Of a stretch of DNA of 64,000 bases, positions 33,311 to 42,235 are shown in pieces. This DNA comes from Candidatus Latescibacterota bacterium (GTDB taxonomy: Bacteria; Latescibacterota; UBA2968; GCA-2709665): contig OZ244937.1 in assembly GCA_965222075.1 (NCBI GenBank), forward strand, positions 3,360,001 through 3,424,000, read 5' to 3'. A program made the position numbers and the translations under genes. The notes under the pieces were generated by a model that was not told where the DNA came from, made no database searches, and saw nothing but the letters and a program-made list of their open reading frames with translations. Every line of letters starts with the position of its first letter. Position 1 is the first letter of the stretch.

Positions 33311-35569
33311 GTGGGCGAGCCGACGACATGGAAAGAGAAACTGGCCGATCGTATCCCCGACGACCTCGGTCGGGAAGTCGATATTTTCAAGACCCAGATC
33401 GAGCTGAGAAGGCAGGGCAAGCTCGACGAGGTGGTCTTCATGGAAACCCGCCTGCGGCGGGGCATCTACGGGCAGCGTTACGACAACGGGCAGCGTTTTG
33501 ACGGCACGCAGACCCAGACGCTGAACTACCCCTCCGGGGACCTGATCAAAGGTCCGAACACCGTCTGGGACGCCCCGGGGATGCAGCGCATCAAGATCCC
33601 CTTTGGCGGCCTGACCGCAGAACAGATGGACGTCCTGGCCGACCTCTCAGAAGAGTACTCCGACGACATCGCTCACATCACCACCCGCCAGGACATCCAG
33701 CTCCACTACGTCCACATCGACGATACCATCGACCTGATGCGCCGGCTGGCCACAGTTGGCATCACCACTCGCGAGGCCTGCGGAAACTCAGTCCGCAACG
33801 TCACCGCCTGCCCCCTGTCGGGCGTCTGCCAAACCGAGACCTTCGATGTAACGCCCTACGCCAGAGCCTGCGCCGGATTCCTCCTGGGCCATCCGGATGT
33901 CCAGGACTTCGGCCGCAAATTCAAGATCGCCTTCTCCGGCTGCAAGCACGAGGCCTGCGGACTAACCACCATGCACGACATGGGCGCCATTGCCGTCAAA
34001 AAGACCGTCGACGGTAGGGAGGTCCGCGGCTTCGAACTCTACGTGGGCGGGGGACTGGGGGCGGTGCCGCACCAGGCCAAGCGCTTCGACGAATTCCTGC
34101 CCGAAGAGGAACTCCTGCCCACCGCGCAGGCCATAGGTCGGGTATTCGCCCGGCTGGGCGAGAAGAAAAACCGCAACCGCGCCCGGATCAAGTTCCTGGT
34201 GGCCAAACTCGGCATTGAGGAATTTAAACGACTCGTCCTGGAGGAGCGGGAAACGATGCCGGAGGACCCCCGGTGGGTCGCCTTCCTCTCCGACCTGCAC
34301 GCCCACGACGAGGAGCCTCTCAGGATCGCTCAGCCGCTGGACGGCGTCGTCAGGCCCGAAGGATTTGATGAATGGTACCGGACCAATGTCTACCCCCAGC
34401 GCCAGGACGGATACGCAGTCGCCACGGTCACCCTCCCCTTAGGCGACATCACGGCCAATCAGTTTCGCGCCCTGGCCGACATCGCCCGCCGCTTTGTCAA
34501 AGACACCGTTCGCACCACCGTAGAGCAGAACATCCTGCTGCGCTGGGTCAGCGAGGCCGACCTGCCCGAACTCTATGCCGCCCTCAAAGCAATCGGCCTG
34601 CACGAACCGGGCGCGGGCACGATCGTAGACGTCACCGCCTGCCCGGGCACGGACACCTGCAAGCTTGGCATCGCCTCCTCTCGAGGGCTTGCGGGCGAAC
34701 TCCGCACGCGTCTGGCGGAAAAGAGCCTCCAACTTGATCAGGCCGTTGAGAACTTGCGCATCAAAATCAGCGGCTGCTTCAACGCCTGCGGCCAGCACCA
34801 CGCCGCCGACCTCGGTTTCTACGGCATCAGCCGAAAATTCAACGGCTACACCGTCCCCCACTTCCAGGTCGTCTTAGGCGGGCAGTGGACTGAAAATGCC
34901 TCCTCCTACGGGCTGCCCATGGGTGCGATTCCCTCCAAGCGAATCCCGGACGCGGTGGCCCGCATCACCGAAAACTACATCCAGGGCCGGAACAGGGAAG
35001 AGAGCTTCCAGGACTACGTCAAACGCGTCGGCAAAGTGCGGGTTAAAGAACTCTTGAACGACCTCACCGAGGTCCCCGTCTACGACCTCGATTCCTCCTT
35101 CTACAGCGACTGGGGCGATACCCGGGTGTTCACCACCGGAGACATGGGCAAAGGCGAGTGCGCCGGCGAAATCGTCCCGCTGGTCCAGTTTGAACTCACC
35201 GCCTGCGAGCGGGAGGCCTTTGAGGCCCTGGTCCACTTAGACGATGGCAACTACGAAAATGCGGCCAGGACCGCCTGCACCGCCATGCTCCACGCGGCCA
35301 GGGCCCTGATCAAAACCCAGTTTCTGGACATCCCGGAGGAGCCGGACAGGATCATCGAGGAATTCCGCAGGCGTTTCTTAGACACCGAACTCTTCTTCGA
35401 CCCTTTCGCCAAGGACAAGTTTGCCAGATATCTGTTTAAAGCGCACGAGGAAGAGCAGAATGGGGTAGACTACACCCCGGACCTGGCCCACCAGCGGATC
35501 GAGGAGGCCCAGCTCTTCATCGAAGCCACCCACAGCTGCTACGGCCGGATGAACGTAGTCACCGCCTGA
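33311..35569 (+). CDS. Ferredoxin-dependent nitrite/sulfite reductase (siroheme, 4Fe-4S) with C-terminal extension
   Basis: GIYGQR, HITTRQDIQ, RKFKIAFSGC, ACPGTDTCKLG, SGCFNACGQH. Confidence 0.9.
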   Translation: MGEPTTWKEKLADRIPDDLGREVDIFKTQIELRRQGKLDEVVFMETRLRRGIYGQRYDNGQRFDGTQTQTLNYPSGDLIKGPNTVWDAPGMQRIKIPFGGLTAEQMDVLADLSEEYSDDIAHITTRQDIQLHYVHIDDTIDLMRRLATVGITTREACGNSVRNVTACPLSGVCQTETFDVTPYARACAGFLLGHPDVQDFGRKFKIAFSGCKHEACGLTTMHDMGAIAVKKTVDGREVRGFELYVGGGLGAVPHQAKRFDEFLPEEELLPTAQAIGRVFARLGEKKNRNRARIKFLVAKLGIEEFKRLVLEERETMPEDPRWVAFLSDLHAHDEEPLRIAQPLDGVVRPEGFDEWYRTNVYPQRQDGYAVATVTLPLGDITANQFRALADIARRFVKDTVRTTVEQNILLRWVSEADLPELYAALKAIGLHEPGAGTIVDVTACPGTDTCKLGIASSRGLAGELRTRLAEKSLQLDQAVENLRIKISGCFNACGQHHAADLGFYGISRKFNGYTVPHFQVVLGGQWTENASSYGLPMGAIPSKRIPDAVARITENYIQGRNREESFQDYVKRVGKVRVKELLNDLTEVPVYDLDSSFYSDWGDTRVFTTGDMGKGECAGEIVPLVQFELTACEREAFEALVHLDDGNYENAARTACTAMLHAARALIKTQFLDIPEEPDRIIEEFRRRFLDTELFFDPFAKDKFARYLFKAHEEEQNGVDYTPDLAHQRIEEAQLFIEATHSCYGRMNVVTA

Positions 35570-36346: not shown

Positions 36347-36431
36347 TCGATAGGGATCACATTTTGATGTACCAATCGAAAAAAACTGAGCAAGGACTGA
36401 AAAGCATACCTCAAGGAAAGGGGTGAAAAGA

Positions 36432-36701
36432 ATGACCTACATCATCGCCGAACCGTGCATTGATGTCCTGGATAGGGCCTGTGTGGAGGTCTGCCCGGTA
36501 GACTGCATCTACGAGCCGGACGCGGCAGAAATTACCTTGCCTTCGGAAGAACGCTTGAACATGCTCTACATCCATCCGGAGGAGTGCATCGACTGTGGTG
36601 CTTGCGAGCCCGAATGCCCGGTAGAGGCGATCTTCGTGGATGAAGATACGCCCGAAGAATGGAATGAATATATCGAAATCAACGCAAAAGCTTTCGAATA
36701 A
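36432..36701 (+). CDS. Dicluster ferredoxin (FdxA-like)
   Basis: [18 protein letters not shown] and [16 protein letters not shown]. Confidence 0.95.
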
Positions 36702-36728
36702 GCGCCCTGTCGGGCCGAGTTGAAAAGG

Positions 36729-36766
36729 AAAATGCCAGAGTCAGGTTCTCGGCCCTGGCATTTTTC
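36729..36766. terminator. Bidirectional terminator
   Basis: aaaatgccag...ctggcattttt between convergent genes. Confidence 0.75.
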
Positions 36767-36824
36767 ATTTGAAAAACAGGGCCAATGGTTCGCTCAGCAT
36801 CAGGCAACCAACCGCAGGTAAAAC

Positions 36825-37784
36825 TCAGAATTCACCCTGCAGCTCCTTCAGCAGCCCCTCCCATGCCCCTCGCTCGCGGACAGGGTCAACCAGAGGCTTC
36901 AACCCCTTGCACCACGCCTTCAGCCTCGCATAAAAAGCCAAATCCCGCTCCGCCCGCCCCATCAGCTTCGCCAGCGCCTCTGTATCCCACACCGGGAAGT
37001 ACCCCGGATAGTCTTCGCCCAAAAGCCCGATTGACCCGGAAATCCGCGACGAAAGCACCGGCACCGAACAGGCCAGCGCCTCACACACCGCGTTTGCGCC
37101 CCCCTCCATCACCGACGTCAGCACCAGCAGCCGGCTGCGGGCTAAGATGCGGACCGCCTGCCAACGGGGGTGCTCCCCCACCCAGCGGTAGCGCGGGTTG
37201 GACGCCGCCTCCGCCCGGGCTTGGTCCGCCATCTCCTCGCTGAGCGCCCCGCCCACCTGCACCACTTCAACCCGCGACCCCGGAGGCAGCAGCCGGGCAG
37301 CAGCAGCGGCCCGAAACGGATCCTTCACCTCCCGCAGGTGCCCCAGCACACAAACTTCAAACGCCCCCACCCTGGGGGCAAAACGTCCCGGCGGTCACGT
37401 AAAAGATTGCGTGATCACCCGCGCTTTGGGACGCAAACGCTCCGGCAGCTCGGCGATGCCAGCAGGCTGCAGCAGCACAAATCGAGACGCCATCTCCAGG
37501 GACTCCTGCGCCTGAGGGTCGGTATGGATGTCCCCGTACAGGTCCGTCCCCGTCAATGCCAGGACCAGCGGCAGATCCGGGTGCACGCGGTGAAACCGGT
37601 CGATTGAGGCGTGGCTCCGCCGGGCGTGTAATGCCACCATCATATCGCACCGCTGCCCGCCGTATTCCTCCTCAACGGCAACACGGTGCCCCAGGTCCCG
37701 CAGCATCCTCGTCCAGCGCAGCGCCGTCACCCGGTTGCCTTTCCGGGAGCGGGCCGGCGCCGGTGTAACCAGACAGATTTTCAT
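36825..37784 (-). CDS. senB: Selenoneine pathway selenosugar synthase SenB (GT-B glycosyltransferase), interrupted by an in-frame TGA at 37395-37397
   Basis: GNRVTALRW, ALHARRS, LTGTDLY (5' ORF) and GHLREVKDP, MEGGAN (3' ORF) are in the same frame, separated by TGA plus 8 sense codons. Confidence 0.85.
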
Positions 37785-37787
37785 GGC

Positions 37788-39122
37788 TCAACCCCCGGTG
37801 CCTGCCAGTGCGCATGTCCTGAACCCCGCCCACACATCCCGGCGATCGGGCGTTTGAAAATTGCGGTAGCCGGTGCGAATCAGCCGGGAACGGGTCACCC
37901 AGCAACCGCCCCGGTAGACCTTGCGCGTGCCGAACCAGGGCTCGGAATACTCCACATACGGATCTGTCTCAAATCCCGGAAAAGGCAGAAAGTCGCTGCT
38001 GGTCCACTCCCACACATTGCCGACCATCTGCCGGCAGCCGAAGGGGCTGTCCCCTTCCGGGAACGCCCCCACATCCACACAGCCCATCCCCCGCCAGTCT
38101 AAGTTGGTCCGCTCCGGCGTGGGCGGCGCATCCCCCCACGGAAAGCGCCGCTTCCCCTGGGCAAGCCCCCTGCCGTCCGCTGCGGGCTCTGCCGCCGCTG
38201 CCGCCTCCCACTCCGCCTCCGTCGGCAGCCGGCGGTCGGCCCAGCGGCAGTACGCCTCCGCCTCGTACCAGTTCACGTGGATCACGGGAAGGTGTGGTTC
38301 CAGCGGCCCCCACCGGTCAAAATGCCGCCGCAGCCAGCCCCCGTTCCCATCCCGCTGCCAGTACACCGGGTGTTCCGCACCGTCGGACTCCCGCCACACC
38401 CACCCTGCCTCGCTCCAGAATTCCCGCGTTCTGTATCCCCCATCTTCTGTAAACGCCGCAAACTCGGCCTGGGTCACCGGCGCCCGCGCAATCGAAAACG
38501 GGGCCACCCCCACCACATGGCCCCACTTCTCGTTGTCAAACACAAACGGCTCCTCCCGGGGCGCGCCCAGCACAAACGCGCCCCCTGCAACCTCCACATC
38601 GCCGGGCAGGGGTCCCCCGCCGGCGTCCGCCTGCCCGGGTTCGGCAACCATCGAAAGGCTCGGAGCGGGATACCCTAAGGTCTGCCGGGCGTAGGTCAGG
38701 GCCTCGGTGTGCATGTCCTCGTGCAGGGTCGTGTAAATAATATGATAGACCTCCGCTTCGGAAAGTCCGCCCTGCTCGATCCGTTCCAGCACCCGGTCCC
38801 GCACCTCGCGCATGTAGGCCAGAGTCTCACCTCGGGAGGGAAGCGGCAGGTCCCACCGCGTATCGTGGGCAACAGCGATCGAATCGTAGAGCGCGTCCTC
38901 GTCACCGCGCACCGGTTCCTGCCCACCCGCATGCCGCAGCGCCCACCTGGACTGGAACCACGCGTGGTGCCCCATCTCCCACAGCAGGGGATTGGTAATA
39001 GGGAGCTGTGGCCCCATCAACTGCTCGTCCGTCAGATCGGCAACCAGTTCAAAAGTCCGCTCGCGGGCATCGCGCACCCACCCGGCAAGTTCGGCAGTTG
39101 TAAAATAACTGGAAAGAGCCAT
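37788..39122 (-). CDS. senA: Selenoneine synthase SenA (EgtB-like, DinB + FGE-sulfatase domains)
   Basis: NPLLWEMGH, HEDMHTE iron motif, FDNEK, RLPTEAEWE, GNVWEW, GFRTC; directly upstream of senB. Confidence 0.87.
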   Translation of the reverse strand: MALSSYFTTAELAGWVRDARERTFELVADLTDEQLMGPQLPITNPLLWEMGHHAWFQSRWALRHAGGQEPVRGDEDALYDSIAVAHDTRWDLPLPSRGETLAYMREVRDRVLERIEQGGLSEAEVYHIIYTTLHEDMHTEALTYARQTLGYPAPSLSMVAEPGQADAGGGPLPGDVEVAGGAFVLGAPREEPFVFDNEKWGHVVGVAPFSIARAPVTQAEFAAFTEDGGYRTREFWSEAGWVWRESDGAEHPVYWQRDGNGGWLRRHFDRWGPLEPHLPVIHVNWYEAEAYCRWADRRLPTEAEWEAAAAAEPAADGRGLAQGKRRFPWGDAPPTPERTNLDWRGMGCVDVGAFPEGDSPFGCRQMVGNVWEWTSSDFLPFPGFETDPYVEYSEPWFGTRKVYRGGCWVTRSRLIRTGYRNFQTPDRRDVWAGFRTCALAGTGG

Positions 39123-39230
39123 TGAAAAAAAATCTCCTCTTTAGGGTTGCGCCTGATGTGAATTATCTGTAACTTGGCAGGTTCTGATGCTACATCTGCC
39201 TCACTCTTCAAACATCGAAGAGGTATACCC

Positions 39231-40088
39231 ATGAAAATAATCCTTTTGTCCTGTCTCTTAGTCCTGTCTTCACTGGTGCCTGCGCTCTCCCAGCCCTTTC
39301 GGTTTACGGCGATTCCAGACGAAAACACAGCGCGTCTGAAGGAACGCTTTGACAAAGTTGCGTCCTACCTGTCCGGTAAACTGGGTGTCCAAGTCGAGTA
39401 CGTACCGGTAAAATCCTACAGCGCTTCGGTCGCCGCGTTCAAGAACAACCAGGTGCAGCTGGCCTGGTTTGGCGGCCTCTCCGGGGTCCAGGCCCGCCGC
39501 GTCGTACCCGGCGCCGTGGCCATCGCCCAGGGCGAAGAAGACCTGTTGTTTGTATCCTACTTCATCGCAAATACAAGAACCGGACTGCAGCCTGCAGAAG
39601 GTTTTCCCGAAGGCATCAGGGGACTGACATTCACCTTTGGGTCAAAAGGATCGACTTCGGGTCGGCTTATGCCGGAGTTCTTTATTCGGAAACATTTTAA
39701 TGCTGCCCCAAAAGAGGTCTTCCGGCGCGTGGGGTTCAGCGGCGACCACTCCAAAACCCTTGCCCTGGTACAATCGGGCAGTTATGAAGCGGGGGTTCTC
39801 AACTACAAGGTCTGGGAAAACGAAACCACAGCGGGCAATGTCGACACCAGCAAAGTCCGCATCATCTGGAAAACGCCCCCCTACCCGGACTACAACTGGA
39901 CAATTCGCGGTGATGTGCAGAAGAAATACGGCAAAGGCTTCATACAGAAAGTCCGGAATGCCTTTCTCGGCATGACGGATAGAGACCTGCTCAACGCCTT
40001 CCCGCGCACCCGTTTCATCCCCGCCGACAACGCGACCTACGGGCCAATACTGGAAACCGCAATCGCCGTGGGCATTATCGAAAAATAG
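39231..40088 (+). CDS. PhnD-like ABC substrate-binding protein (putative selenate/selenium transporter type)
   Basis: Signal peptide, FTAIPDE, AWFGGLSGVQAR, FGSKGSTSGRLMP, GFSGDH, YPDYNWT. Confidence 0.85.
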   Translation: MKIILLSCLLVLSSLVPALSQPFRFTAIPDENTARLKERFDKVASYLSGKLGVQVEYVPVKSYSASVAAFKNNQVQLAWFGGLSGVQARRVVPGAVAIAQGEEDLLFVSYFIANTRTGLQPAEGFPEGIRGLTFTFGSKGSTSGRLMPEFFIRKHFNAAPKEVFRRVGFSGDHSKTLALVQSGSYEAGVLNYKVWENETTAGNVDTSKVRIIWKTPPYPDYNWTIRGDVQKKYGKGFIQKVRNAFLGMTDRDLLNAFPRTRFIPADNATYGPILETAIAVGIIEK

Positions 40089-40091
40089 CCT

Positions 40092-40745
40092 ATGTTCGAT
40101 CTGGACAACATCAGTGTCGCCTACAGTGACACGCCGGTGCTGGTGGACATCTCTCTCAACATTCGGGAAGGAGAGAAAATCGTCATCATCGGCGCCAGCG
40201 GGGCCGGCAAATCGACATTGCTCAGGAAGCTTTACGAGATGCAGAAGGAACGGGCGGCGTTCATCCATCAGGATTATGCGCTCGTACCGCAGCTTTCTGC
40301 CTTTCACAATGTGTGCATCGGCCGCCTCGACCGACACAGCACCGCTTACAACCTGTTCAACCTGATCAAACCTCGAAAAGTGGAACTGGCCAGCGTCACG
40401 CCCATACTTGAGTCGCTGGGCATGCCGGAGAAAACCTTCGAACGCGTCAGCAGCCTGTCGGGCGGCCAGCAACAACGGGTCGCCGTCGCACGCGCGGTTT
40501 ACAGGGAAGCCGACGCCCTGATCGGCGATGAGCCTGTGTCTTCCATCGATCCGCACCAGGCAGGTGCGGTACTGAACCTCCTTAAACAGCGGTCAAAAAC
40601 CCTCATCCTGGCGATGCACGACGTACAGCTCGCGCTCGAGCATTTTGACCGCATCGTCGGGCTGCGCCTCGGTCGAATCGTCTTTGACCTGCCAGGTGTA
40701 GAGGTCAACGACAAAATCCTAACCGATCTGTACCGACCTTGCTGA
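40092..40745 (+). CDS. ABC transporter ATP-binding protein (PhnC-like)
   Basis: GASGAGKST, LSGGQQQRVAVAR, DEPVSSID. Confidence 0.93.
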   Translation: MFDLDNISVAYSDTPVLVDISLNIREGEKIVIIGASGAGKSTLLRKLYEMQKERAAFIHQDYALVPQLSAFHNVCIGRLDRHSTAYNLFNLIKPRKVELASVTPILESLGMPEKTFERVSSLSGGQQQRVAVARAVYREADALIGDEPVSSIDPHQAGAVLNLLKQRSKTLILAMHDVQLALEHFDRIVGLRLGRIVFDLPGVEVNDKILTDLYRPC

Positions 40746-42235
40746 GAGTCAGCCTTTACTTCCTTGTCGTTGCATCCGTCTGTCTCTTATTCGCAGATAT
40801 CGAGATCACGACGCTCGATCCCTGGCAGGAGATCCACCGGGTTGTCCTGGGCTGGGTCACGCCGGACCTGCTCGTACTCTACACCCTCAAAGACGCCCTG
40901 CTCAACACCCTCACCTTTGCGTTTTGCGGCATCACCCTCGGGATCCTGTTCGGCGCCTGTTTCGCCTTCCTTTTTCACATCAACCTCGTCAGACTCTTCT
41001 GCGCTTTCATCAGGGCCATCCACGAAATCCTCTGGGCCTTTATCTTCCTGCCCATCGTTGGATTAAACCCGATCTGCGGCGTCCTGGCCATCGGCGTCCC
41101 CTATGCCGGCGTCTTTGCAAAGGTGTATGCGGAGATCCTGCAGGAAGCCGACCAGAATCCCCTGAAAGGCTTACCGCCCGGTACCCGTTCCATCTCCAGG
41201 TTCATCTATGGAATCTTGCCGGTCACTTACACTGATCTCAAAAACTACACCGCCTACCGGTTCGAATGCGCCCTGCGTTCCAGCGCCATACTGGGCTTCA
41301 TTGGACTGCTCACCCTCGGATTTCACCTGGAAACCGCCTTTCGGGAAGGGCTCTATTCAGAAGCGGCCGCCCTGCTTTACATCTTCTACCTGCTCATTGC
41401 CTCCCTCAAATACTGGCTCAGGCCCAGACTCGTCCCCATATACGTCGGACTCTCCTTCGCCCTCATCTCCAAAGAGACATCCCTGTCGTGGGAGAACATC
41501 ACCCGCTTTCTCACCTACGAAATCCTCCCCTGGCCGATGCGGCGGGAGGGCTTTCTGTCCGGCACCTACGAAATCGCGTTTCCAGCCGGACAGGTCTGGG
41601 AATGGGCGGTCGATATATTCACAAGCGAGGGGCTTGTGGGCGTGTGGAATACGGTCATCCTGACCCAGATTGTTCTGGCGGGCACCGGACTGTTTACGCT
41701 CGTGGGCTTCGCGGCCGTCTGCCGGCACTTCTCGCCTCTCGCCTTTGCCAGGATCTCACACTTCCTCCTCATTATCCTGCGCACCACACCCGAATACATC
41801 CTGGCCTATGCCTTTATCCAGCTCTGGGGACCGTCCATGCTCCCCGCGATCGCCGCCATCGTCCTGCACAACGGCGCAATCCTGTCCTACCTGACCGGCC
41901 AGAACGCCGACCTGGTCAACCTCAGGATAGACGCGTCTGAGAAAAAAACCAATCGCTACTTTTTTGAAGTCCTCCCCCGCATCTACGGACAGTTCCTGGC
42001 CTTTCTGTTCTATCGCTGGGAGGTCATGATGCGAGAATCGGCCATTCTGGGAATTCTGGGCATCTACACGCTGGGATTCTTCATCGACAGCGCCATAGCG
42101 GACGACAAGCTGGACAAGGCCATCTTTCTGATCCTCTTCACCGCGCTGATGACCATGGTCATCGACACCATCTCCCAGAAGATACGCAAAAGGCTGCGGA
42201 TCTCTCCGGGTGCGGTCTTAACCATAAGAGAGTGA
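40739..42235 (+). CDS. ABC transporter permease, fused double PhnE-like
   Basis: YRFECALRSSAILG and YRWEVMMRESAILG repeats. Confidence 0.9.
   Translation: MLRVSLYFLVVASVCLLFADIEITTLDPWQEIHRVVLGWVTPDLLVLYTLKDALLNTLTFAFCGITLGILFGACFAFLFHINLVRLFCAFIRAIHEILWAFIFLPIVGLNPICGVLAIGVPYAGVFAKVYAEILQEADQNPLKGLPPGTRSISRFIYGILPVTYTDLKNYTAYRFECALRSSAILGFIGLLTLGFHLETAFREGLYSEAAALLYIFYLLIASLKYWLRPRLVPIYVGLSFALISKETSLSWENITRFLTYEILPWPMRREGFLSGTYEIAFPAGQVWEWAVDIFTSEGLVGVWNTVILTQIVLAGTGLFTLVGFAAVCRHFSPLAFARISHFLLIILRTTPEYILAYAFIQLWGPSMLPAIAAIVLHNGAILSYLTGQNADLVNLRIDASEKKTNRYFFEVLPRIYGQFLAFLFYRWEVMMRESAILGILGIYTLGFFIDSAIADDKLDKAIFLILFTALMTMVIDTISQKIRKRLRISPGAVLTIRE

Follow-up and report, generated by a model that had tools for sequence, protein, structure and literature searches.

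Can a single in-frame UGA in a selenosugar synthase gene be read as selenocysteine (Sec) rather than as a stop? The question is raised by senB on the minus strand of a 64,000-nucleotide stretch of DNA from a Candidatus Latescibacterota bacterium (assembly GCA_965222075.1, contig OZ244937.1, positions 3,360,001 to 3,424,000 of the forward strand), referred to here as the window. The first-pass annotation of this DNA had proposed that a UGA splitting senB, followed by a hairpin resembling a selenocysteine insertion sequence (SECIS), could be a Sec codon. The comparative data bear this out to the extent that UGA130 is very probably a Sec codon with its own SECIS hairpin, because the TGA is conserved in ten sequences, relatives carry Cys at the same position, the hairpin fits the bacterial SECIS (bSECIS) model and shows covariation, the gene is under purifying selection and the genome encodes the Sec machinery. 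The features on which the argument rests are listed below in window coordinates.

36825..37784, minus strand: senB, selenosugar synthase, 319 codons including the proposed Sec130, with its own stop codon TGA at 36827..36825
37395..37397, minus strand: in-frame UGA at codon 130, the proposed Sec codon, in the context QSFT-U-PPG
37363..37379, minus strand: SECIS-like hairpin GCCCCCA-GGG-UGGGGGC, with covariation and a fit to published bSECIS constraints
37398..37784, minus strand: codons 1-129, the N-terminal Rossmann domain (N17, T20, H53, R56, T78, T80, Q126)
36828..37394, minus strand: codons 131-319, the remaining hinge loop and the C-terminal domain (C145, H149, R151, K154, E227-GGAN, E235)
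37350..37352, minus strand: codon 145, TGT, the Cys of FEVCVLGH, invariant in this SenB subfamily
37788..39122, minus strand: senA, selenoneine synthase (NF041186, 502.9 bits, cut-off 420)

Translation of 36825-37784 on the minus strand gives exactly one internal stop, the TGA at 37397..37395 in the context CAA TCT TTT ACG TGA CCG CCG GGA, and gene callers report two open reading frames here. The read-through product matches the NCBIfam SenB profile TIGR04348 with 398.7 bits (cut-off 300), colinear with positions 1-309 of 310, and the separate pieces score 167.9 and 222 bits. The reading frame contains no damage besides the TGA and the profile match runs without a frameshift, in agreement with the first-pass description of two otherwise intact halves. 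Chains 8jjq and 8fbx of SenB in the PDB match the read-through product with an E-value of about 2e-57, and senA lies directly upstream, with 3 nucleotides between its stop codon and the senB start codon. Judged by profile, key residues and the senA neighbor, the gene is a SenB family selenosugar synthase. Both senA and senB terminate with TGA, and therefore TGA is not reassigned in this genome.

The residues needed for function are distributed on both sides of the UGA. In SenB of Variovorax paradoxus, mutagenesis has shown that N20, T23, K158, E231 and E239 matter, with a pocket formed by H58, R61, T83, T85 and R155 (PMC10891094), and Gln131 binds the sugar of uridine diphosphate N-acetylglucosamine (UDP-GlcNAc) (PMC10891094, PMC11237966). 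The residues N20/T23/H58/R61/T83/T85/Q131/R155/K158/E231/E239, with reported roles in selenophosphate binding, sugar binding and Se-P cleavage, correspond to N17/T20/H53/R56/T78/T80/Q126/R151/K154/E227/E235 in the Latescibacterota protein, all of them identical, and most are invariant in an alignment of 36 sequences. The selenophosphate pocket (N17, T20, H53, R56, T78 and T80) and the sugar-contacting Q126 are encoded upstream of the TGA, and R151, the catalytic K154, E227 and E235 are retained downstream of it, and therefore neither half is expected to be functional alone.

Selection on the two halves was estimated by the Nei-Gojobori method as the ratio of nonsynonymous to synonymous divergence (dN/dS) in 11 pairs of TGA-bearing genes, in which dS was mostly above 1 and in several cases saturated. 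The ratio was 0.07-0.22 for codons 1-129 and 0.10-0.30 for codons 131-319, so the half downstream of the TGA is, on these estimates, under purifying selection and thus translated. No restart codon is conserved behind the TGA: the first in-frame ATG, GTG or TTG ranges from +9 to +23 codons, with two sequences (L023 and L028) having their first possible restart at +23, past strand C-beta-1 and Arg151, and a third (L032) having no such codon within 59 codons after the TGA.

The TGA itself is found again in further sequence data and in related genomes. Contigs assembled from three sequencing runs of three studies span 37395-37397 with no difference listed, where one of the three runs (X3) may be the source of the window itself. 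In the phylum, senB was detected (E <= 1e-60) in 31 of 168 genomes, nine of which carry one internal TGA. The TGA stands at codon 130 in eight of the 31, comprising all four senB genomes of family f1, three of the four of family f2 and the only one of family f4, and these eight genomes span six genera and three families. The fourth f2 genome (G049) has Cys (TGC) at codon 130, and the 21 remaining senB genes of the phylum, all of family f3, have Pro, Ala or Val. A scan of genome contigs (80 loci) returned four site-130 TGA loci and one Cys locus, all five titled Candidatus Latescibacterota; these were not recounted because the surroundings of the site are the same as in loci of the phylum genomes already considered. 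Among 80 loci from metagenome contigs, two further TGA sequences (L143 and L152) and one with Cys (L186) were found. This brings the distinct codon-130 TGA sequences to ten, eight from phylum genomes and two from metagenome contigs, and Cys encoded by TGC is present at the codon in G049 (L025, and L103 in the other collection) and in contig L186. Trp was never seen in this column in the two 80-locus sets and the 29 phylum rows.

Protein collections hold the same pattern in truncated form. Searching about 5.8 billion proteins with the 129-residue N-terminal piece yielded 795 short relatives at E <= 1e-10, and among the best 120 of these fragments 16 clusters (90% identity) are exactly 129 residues long, ending in QSFT, QSFN, QSAG or QAFT. 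In their sources they are called 'hypothetical protein' or 'TIGR04348 family glycosyltransferase, partial'. When the same collection was searched with the full read-through sequence, the best full-length match had 74% identity, whereas the 129-residue fragments had 83-100%. As full-length relatives do not exceed 74% and the closer ones are fragments, the whole clade has evidently been annotated as truncated genes.

In an IQ-TREE phylogeny (LG+G4, quick mode) of 48 rows, hand-picked out of 171 distinct SenB rows, the ten Sec rows and two Cys rows form one clade with a support of 96.8 in the Shimodaira-Hasegawa-like approximate likelihood ratio test, and in a FastTree phylogeny of all 171 rows one site-130 sequence (G058, loci L028/L065) stands apart from the others. 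Sister sequences of the clade have Ala at the site. The simplest history consistent with these trees would be that UGA130 arose once, in the ancestor of the f1, f2 and f4 SenB genes, and persisted while synonymous divergence reached saturation, being exchanged once for Cys.

Several individual sequences vary around these positions. Two site-130 sequences (L030 and L031) read QSC-T-U-P, which forms a C-x-U motif, and another (L032) has Sec130 together with Thr in place of Cys145. Genome G109 (L060/L102) has a TGA at about codon 165, reading TAGATW-TGA-LPGSS where others have ARLLP; the TGA is missing from another genome of its genus, and G109 could represent a broken gene or something else. Metagenome contig L140 has a TGA at senB codon 4 (LRI-U-IVTPAP), a position occupied by Cys4 in many homologues, as a single instance.

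For the UGA to be read as Sec in a bacterium, a suitable hairpin should follow it. Here the hairpin consists of a 7-base-pair (bp) stem with a GGG loop, with 15 nucleotides (nt) from the UGA to the stem and 22 nt to the loop, and every coordinate given in the first-pass annotation is right. The bSECISearch consensus allows a loop of 3-9 nt on a 4-16 bp stem, with G at loop position 1 or 2 and usually G or U next to it, a distance of 16-37 nt from UGA to loop, and a minimum free energy of at most -7.5 kcal/mol (as quoted in the Fig. 2 legend of PMC13188914). All four constraints are satisfied in each of the ten TGA-bearing sequences, whose hairpins have loops of 3-5 nt (GGG, GGG, AGGA, AGGAA, CGGGC, AGGC, AGGC, GGA, AGGAA and AGGAG), stems of 6-7 bp, spacings of 18-22 nt and minimum free energies of -7.7 to -14.3 kcal/mol. 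In two of them (L030 and L031) the hairpin is bulged, with a spacing of 18 nt.

When the ten TGA-bearing sequences were aligned with the window stem taken as the structure, 85.7% of cells paired in register, compared with 45.7-60% when the register was slid by 1-3 columns. Changes on both sides occur in four of the seven pairs, the covariation score was 0.308 against 0.188 in shuffles, with none of 500 shuffles reaching it, and RNAalifold recovered the same helix on this alignment. The changes from C-G to U-A (in L032 and L152) fall at third positions of Ala/Thr, Pro and Gly codons; being synonymous, they are not imposed by the protein. The region from +10 to +45 folds with a mean of -12.2 kcal/mol in nine Sec sequences (a set that leaves out L032) and -7.7 kcal/mol in 139 non-Sec sequences (Mann-Whitney p = 4.5e-4, or 7.5e-5 after correction for G+C content), and since the sequences are related and share one origin, the p-values for folding and covariation overstate the case.

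These properties make the senB hairpin look like a bacterial SECIS of the Escherichia coli fdhF type, in that it is a hairpin within the coding sequence, right after the UGA, with a small apical G loop. The fdhF SECIS has a loop of the GGUC type, unlike the GGG or AGGA-like loops of senB, and binding of SelB to the latter is a prediction. A scan of 36700-37900 against Rfam returned just one chance match to a long noncoding RNA (E = 0.38) and no Rfam family for the hairpin.

The machinery for Sec insertion is encoded by the same genome, which is a single contig of 5.36 Mb. It contains selA (566.7 bits), selB (368.6 bits), a tRNA-Sec gene (74.5 bits), and a selD that itself carries a TGA at the canonical CGG-U-ASK site. 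The selD, tRNA-Sec and selB genes (L009, L033 and L037) are clustered at contig positions 3959749-3962940, outside the window. The first-pass annotation had named selA, selB, selC and selD as genes to look for, and all are in the genome. No senC was found in the 64-kb window, and the sole clear selD lies elsewhere in the genome; as the only one, it must feed selenophosphate to both Sec synthesis and SenB. In the phylum, selA is present in 131 of 168 genomes, including all nine with a TGA-bearing senB; because it is so widespread, this establishes a prerequisite and is not a correlation. A formate dehydrogenase alpha-like gene (L223, contig positions 1196506-1197228, open frame of 921 amino acids) also has one in-frame TGA and likely encodes a further selenoprotein.

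With these components, decoding of senB would proceed as follows. At UGA130, the hairpin 15 nt downstream, with its G/C stem, would serve as a bacterial SECIS and recruit SelB bearing Sec-tRNA(Sec), and Sec would be inserted, giving a full-length selenosugar synthase of 319 residues whose Sec lies in the flexible hinge loop that connects one Rossmann domain to the other. Without Sec-tRNA(Sec), translation would terminate after 129 residues, and this fragment, with the selenophosphate pocket but without the UDP-sugar-binding domain and the catalytic Lys, should be inactive. As the UGA precedes the C-terminal domain, production of active SenB would be mechanically tied to the supply of Sec-tRNA.

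An AlphaFold2 model built on the 36-sequence alignment (mean predicted local distance difference test score of 94.4) positions residue 130 in a coil at 124-141, between the last strand of the N-terminal domain and the strand at 142-147. In V. paradoxus SenB the hinge loop comprises residues 131-146 (PMC11237966); it is unstructured without substrate and has been proposed to order upon UDP-GlcNAc binding (PMC10702425). The counterpart of Gln131 is Q126, four residues ahead of Sec130, which would put Sec on a mobile loop edging the catalytic cleft. The protein is otherwise like V. paradoxus SenB (8FBX, 8JJQ, 8JJN; RsSenB 8K5U) in its TIGR04348 membership, GT-B fold, adjoining senA and conserved residues, and differs from it in that hinge-loop codon 130 is UGA and no senC lies beside senB. 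The first-pass annotation had placed the site in a linker and not at a known Cys position, and this is correct, since it falls in the hinge loop at a position where other SenB proteins have Pro, Ala, Arg or Lys.

A chemical role for Sec130 is possible, in which it would hold or hand over the air-sensitive selenosugar or pair with Cys145. Evidence for chemistry includes the invariant Cys at 145, the presence of Cys wherever Sec has been lost, the location of the loop beside the sugar site and the C-x-U motif of L030 and L031. The combination of Sec130 with Thr145 in L032 argues against an obligatory Sec130-Cys145 pair.

Codon 130 is not the only place at which senB genes carry an in-frame TGA. 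Codon 145, the Cys of FEVCVLGH, encodes Cys in 74 of 80 and 78 of 81 rows and is TGA in loci titled Candidatus Poribacteria (site-145 loci L100, L108, L112, L121, L211, L218, L224, L226, L227, L229, L233, L236 and L246). In the Poribacteria phylum, senB is present in 45 of 176 genomes, 10 of which have one TGA; it lies at codon 145 in all eight of these that were covered (all but G232 and G233). The site-145 TGA forms are interspersed with Cys forms in the tree, and the hairpins after this site are encoded by a conserved RPVKDP peptide and occur in Cys forms too, which makes them no evidence for a SECIS. Site 145 would be a classical chemical exchange of Cys for Sec.

Codon 171 encodes Arg in 62 of 80 and 60 of 81 rows. 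A TGA takes its place, within LLPxSS-U-IRVVHVG, in four metagenome contigs and in loci whose titles name Acidobacteria or Solibacteraceae (site-171 loci L073, L081, L146, L147, L155, L166, L255, L260 and L261). In a sample of 401 genomes of the Acidobacteria-titled class, senB was found in 43, three of which carry the site-171 TGA; the 43 include two unpublished genomes (G597 and G733) that support no claim made here and without which the count is 41 of 399. Cys occupies codon 171 in one relative (L274), and the stems after this site, judged by eye, are short ones of 5 bp only. In the model, site 171 is at the start of strand C-beta-2 and, from Rossmann topology, is probably far from the active site. 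Neither Cys nor Sec stands at a TGA site in the solved enzymes, where the equivalents of 130, 145 and 171 are about A135, V149 and a D. Like site 130, site 171 is not an old Cys position as far as the alignments indicate: with Ala at 130 in the sisters and mostly Arg at 171, at neither site was Sec a simple replacement for an old catalytic Cys. Among the same best 120 protein fragments, the last residue is 144 in 22 clusters and 170 in 28, and four more share the ending of the residue-144 group but differ in length. For sites 145 and 171, five genomes were tested for selA, and each contains it.

Several observations weigh against reading UGA130 as Sec. Sec insertion at this codon is deduced from sequence evidence, and the ten TGA sequences represent one retained event and not ten. 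The codon-130 column outside the clade holds Pro, Ala, Arg, Lys and others and not a conserved Cys, and the characterized V. paradoxus SenB works without Cys or Sec at the equivalent position; a site of this kind is unlike those of nearly all known selenoproteins. The 66-nt stretch folded alone gives z = -0.94, with 43 of 200 shuffles folding equally well; at this chance level, the significance of the hairpin comes only from comparison with relatives. A P-R-x-G peptide supplies the codons that form the hairpin, CCN for Pro and GGN/AGG for Gly/Arg, and the DNA is rich in G+C, so conservation of the hairpin could partly be at the protein level. As UGA followed by C is a leaky, weak termination context in E. 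coli, some readthrough independent of Sec is also possible. Finally, a sponge metatranscriptome contig of 323 bases matches 37518-37840, where senA ends and senB begins, with a single difference, and it stops short of the UGA. It gives a weak hint that the senA-senB junction is transcribed, given that an RNA library can contain DNA.

Four other explanations were weighed against these data. That the TGA is a recent nonsense mutation in a pseudogene, or an assembly error, has a negligible chance of being correct. A single change separates TGA from CGA, Arg codons occupy this column in some homologues, and the first-pass annotation had considered that a CGA-to-TGA change or a sequencing error would explain the interruption equally well. 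This is overturned by the comparative data, with the same TGA in contigs from three studies and in ten sequences separated by saturated synonymous divergence, downstream dN/dS ratios well below 1, and a colinear profile match with no frameshift; the checks it had suggested, of the sequence data at 37395-37397 and of relatives for a conserved TGA or Cys and for hairpin covariation, thus came out in favor of a Sec codon. It is highly unlikely that the codon is a leaky stop, at which a near-cognate tRNA such as tRNA-Trp would allow some low-level readthrough that needs neither SelB nor selenium. The UGA is followed by CC in all ten sequences, which counts in favor of this explanation, but the C is forced by a conserved Pro codon that is also present in non-Sec homologues, the homologues have no Trp at the site while Cys does occur, SECIS spacing and loop fit in all ten, and Sec machinery is present in every TGA-bearing genome examined. 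Also exceedingly improbable is a split gene whose TGA really ends translation, each Rossmann domain being made as its own polypeptide and the two then associating in the manner of Alg13/Alg14, a split GT-B enzyme. The TGA does lie at the domain boundary, both halves are under purifying selection, and gene callers annotate two frames. This explanation is contradicted by the lack of a conserved in-frame start (L032 has none in 59 codons, and L023 and L028 reach one only at +23), by nested Cys relatives that make a fused protein, and by TGA sites 145 and 171, which fall inside the C-terminal domain; it also leaves the covarying hairpin without a role.

The remaining alternative accepts Sec insertion and differs in what the residue is for. 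Here Sec would have little chemical role and would act as a selenium gate, with full-length SenB made only when Sec-tRNA(Sec) is charged. This is doubtful, though less so than the other alternatives, and the same tentative standing applies to its corollary that selenophosphate would go to selenoproteins first and selenoneine would receive the surplus, with Sec used for regulation, and with little dependence on its position, in three groups of organisms. Consistent with a gate, site 130 is a variable coil position in the hinge loop, V. paradoxus SenB has activity although none of its three corresponding positions is Cys or Sec, and TGA recurs at codons 130, 145 and 171 in three organism groups, with site 171 probably distant from the catalytic site. 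Instead of an old catalytic Cys, the sisters show Ala at 130 and mostly Arg at 171, and one selD serves both pathways with no senC next to senB. On the other side, site 145 replaces a Cys that is invariant in the subfamily, loss of Sec at 130 and 171 gave Cys (though TGA to TGY is just one step), and the hinge loop borders the sugar-binding Gln and has been proposed to become ordered once substrate binds, which would allow for a chemical role. Nor does the adjacency of senC separate the Sec forms from others, as five of six site-145 loci have a selD-like gene. In full, a selD-like gene lies beside senB in 1 of 14 site-130 loci, 0 of 3 Cys loci, 5 of 6 site-145 loci, 0 of 6 site-171 loci and 19 of 161 others, with flank lengths that differ between the locus sets. 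Adjacency of senC or selD was dropped as a marker of Sec-form senB, as these counts give no clean relation.

The genes around the Sec-codon candidate senB include a putative selenium uptake system. A putative selenate transporter of the ATP-binding cassette (ABC) type is divergent from senA and thus adjoins the sen genes.

39174..42235, plus strand: putative selenate ABC transporter, divergent from senA, with TIGR04553, PhnC-like and PhnE-like matches
39174-40088, plus strand: transporter binding protein (TIGR04553, 368.7 bits, cut-off 250)
40092-40745, plus strand: transporter ATPase (PhnC-like match)
40739-42235, plus strand: transporter permease (PhnE-like match)

Just downstream of senB, on the opposite strand, are a gene for a NirA-family sulfite/nitrite reductase-like protein (33311-35569, plus strand; 266.9 bits, below the 523-bit cut-off) and one for an FdxA-type ferredoxin (36423-36701, plus strand); it is conceivable that the two proteins serve this pathway by reducing selenite or sulfite. 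A terminator-like hairpin with a T run (36740-36759, plus strand) lies between the convergent ferredoxin gene and senB; in the scan, such terminator-like sites were no commoner than in shuffles.

Compared with known systems, a Sec-containing SenB would be like SelD, a selenium-metabolism enzyme with Sec or Cys on a flexible loop of its own, with the difference that in SelD this is a conserved catalytic residue, whereas in SenB the site varies across the family. It would also share with known prokaryotic selenoprotein families a UGA with a SECIS, Cys homologues and a patchy phyletic distribution. Most families in Table 1 of PMC13188914 have redox motifs of the CxxU/UxxC type, while the motif here is T-U-P-P-G, with C-x-U only in L030 and L031. 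That table, in a 2026 review, contains no glycosyltransferase, SenB or TIGR04348 among its 119 prokaryotic selenoprotein families, and SenB is not mentioned in the deep-Sep text and supplements searched. In the passages searched, the SenB structure papers and the Kayrouz preprint mention Sec only as background, and no link of SenB or selenoneine to Sec insertion or a SECIS was found in the literature searched. SenB is most likely a new selenoprotein family.

If Sec is inserted, a glycosyltransferase joins the selenoproteins, and the enzyme that feeds selenoneine synthesis would itself contain selenium, joining the Sec-tRNA and selenoneine pathways in one gene. As the nearest relatives occur in the protein collection searched only as fragments of 129, 144 or 170 residues, the potential for selenoneine synthesis is probably under-counted in the groups concerned, whose records are titled Latescibacterota, Poribacteria and Acidobacteria. 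Because neither site 130 nor site 171 is an old Cys position, the two could serve to test whether Sec can be selected for non-catalytic reasons. Should the selenium gate prove true, it would be an exception to the rule that Sec evolves from a redox-active Cys, given that two of the three sites were ancestrally not Cys, and the Sec codon would be a built-in selenium gauge for the production of active selenosugar synthase.

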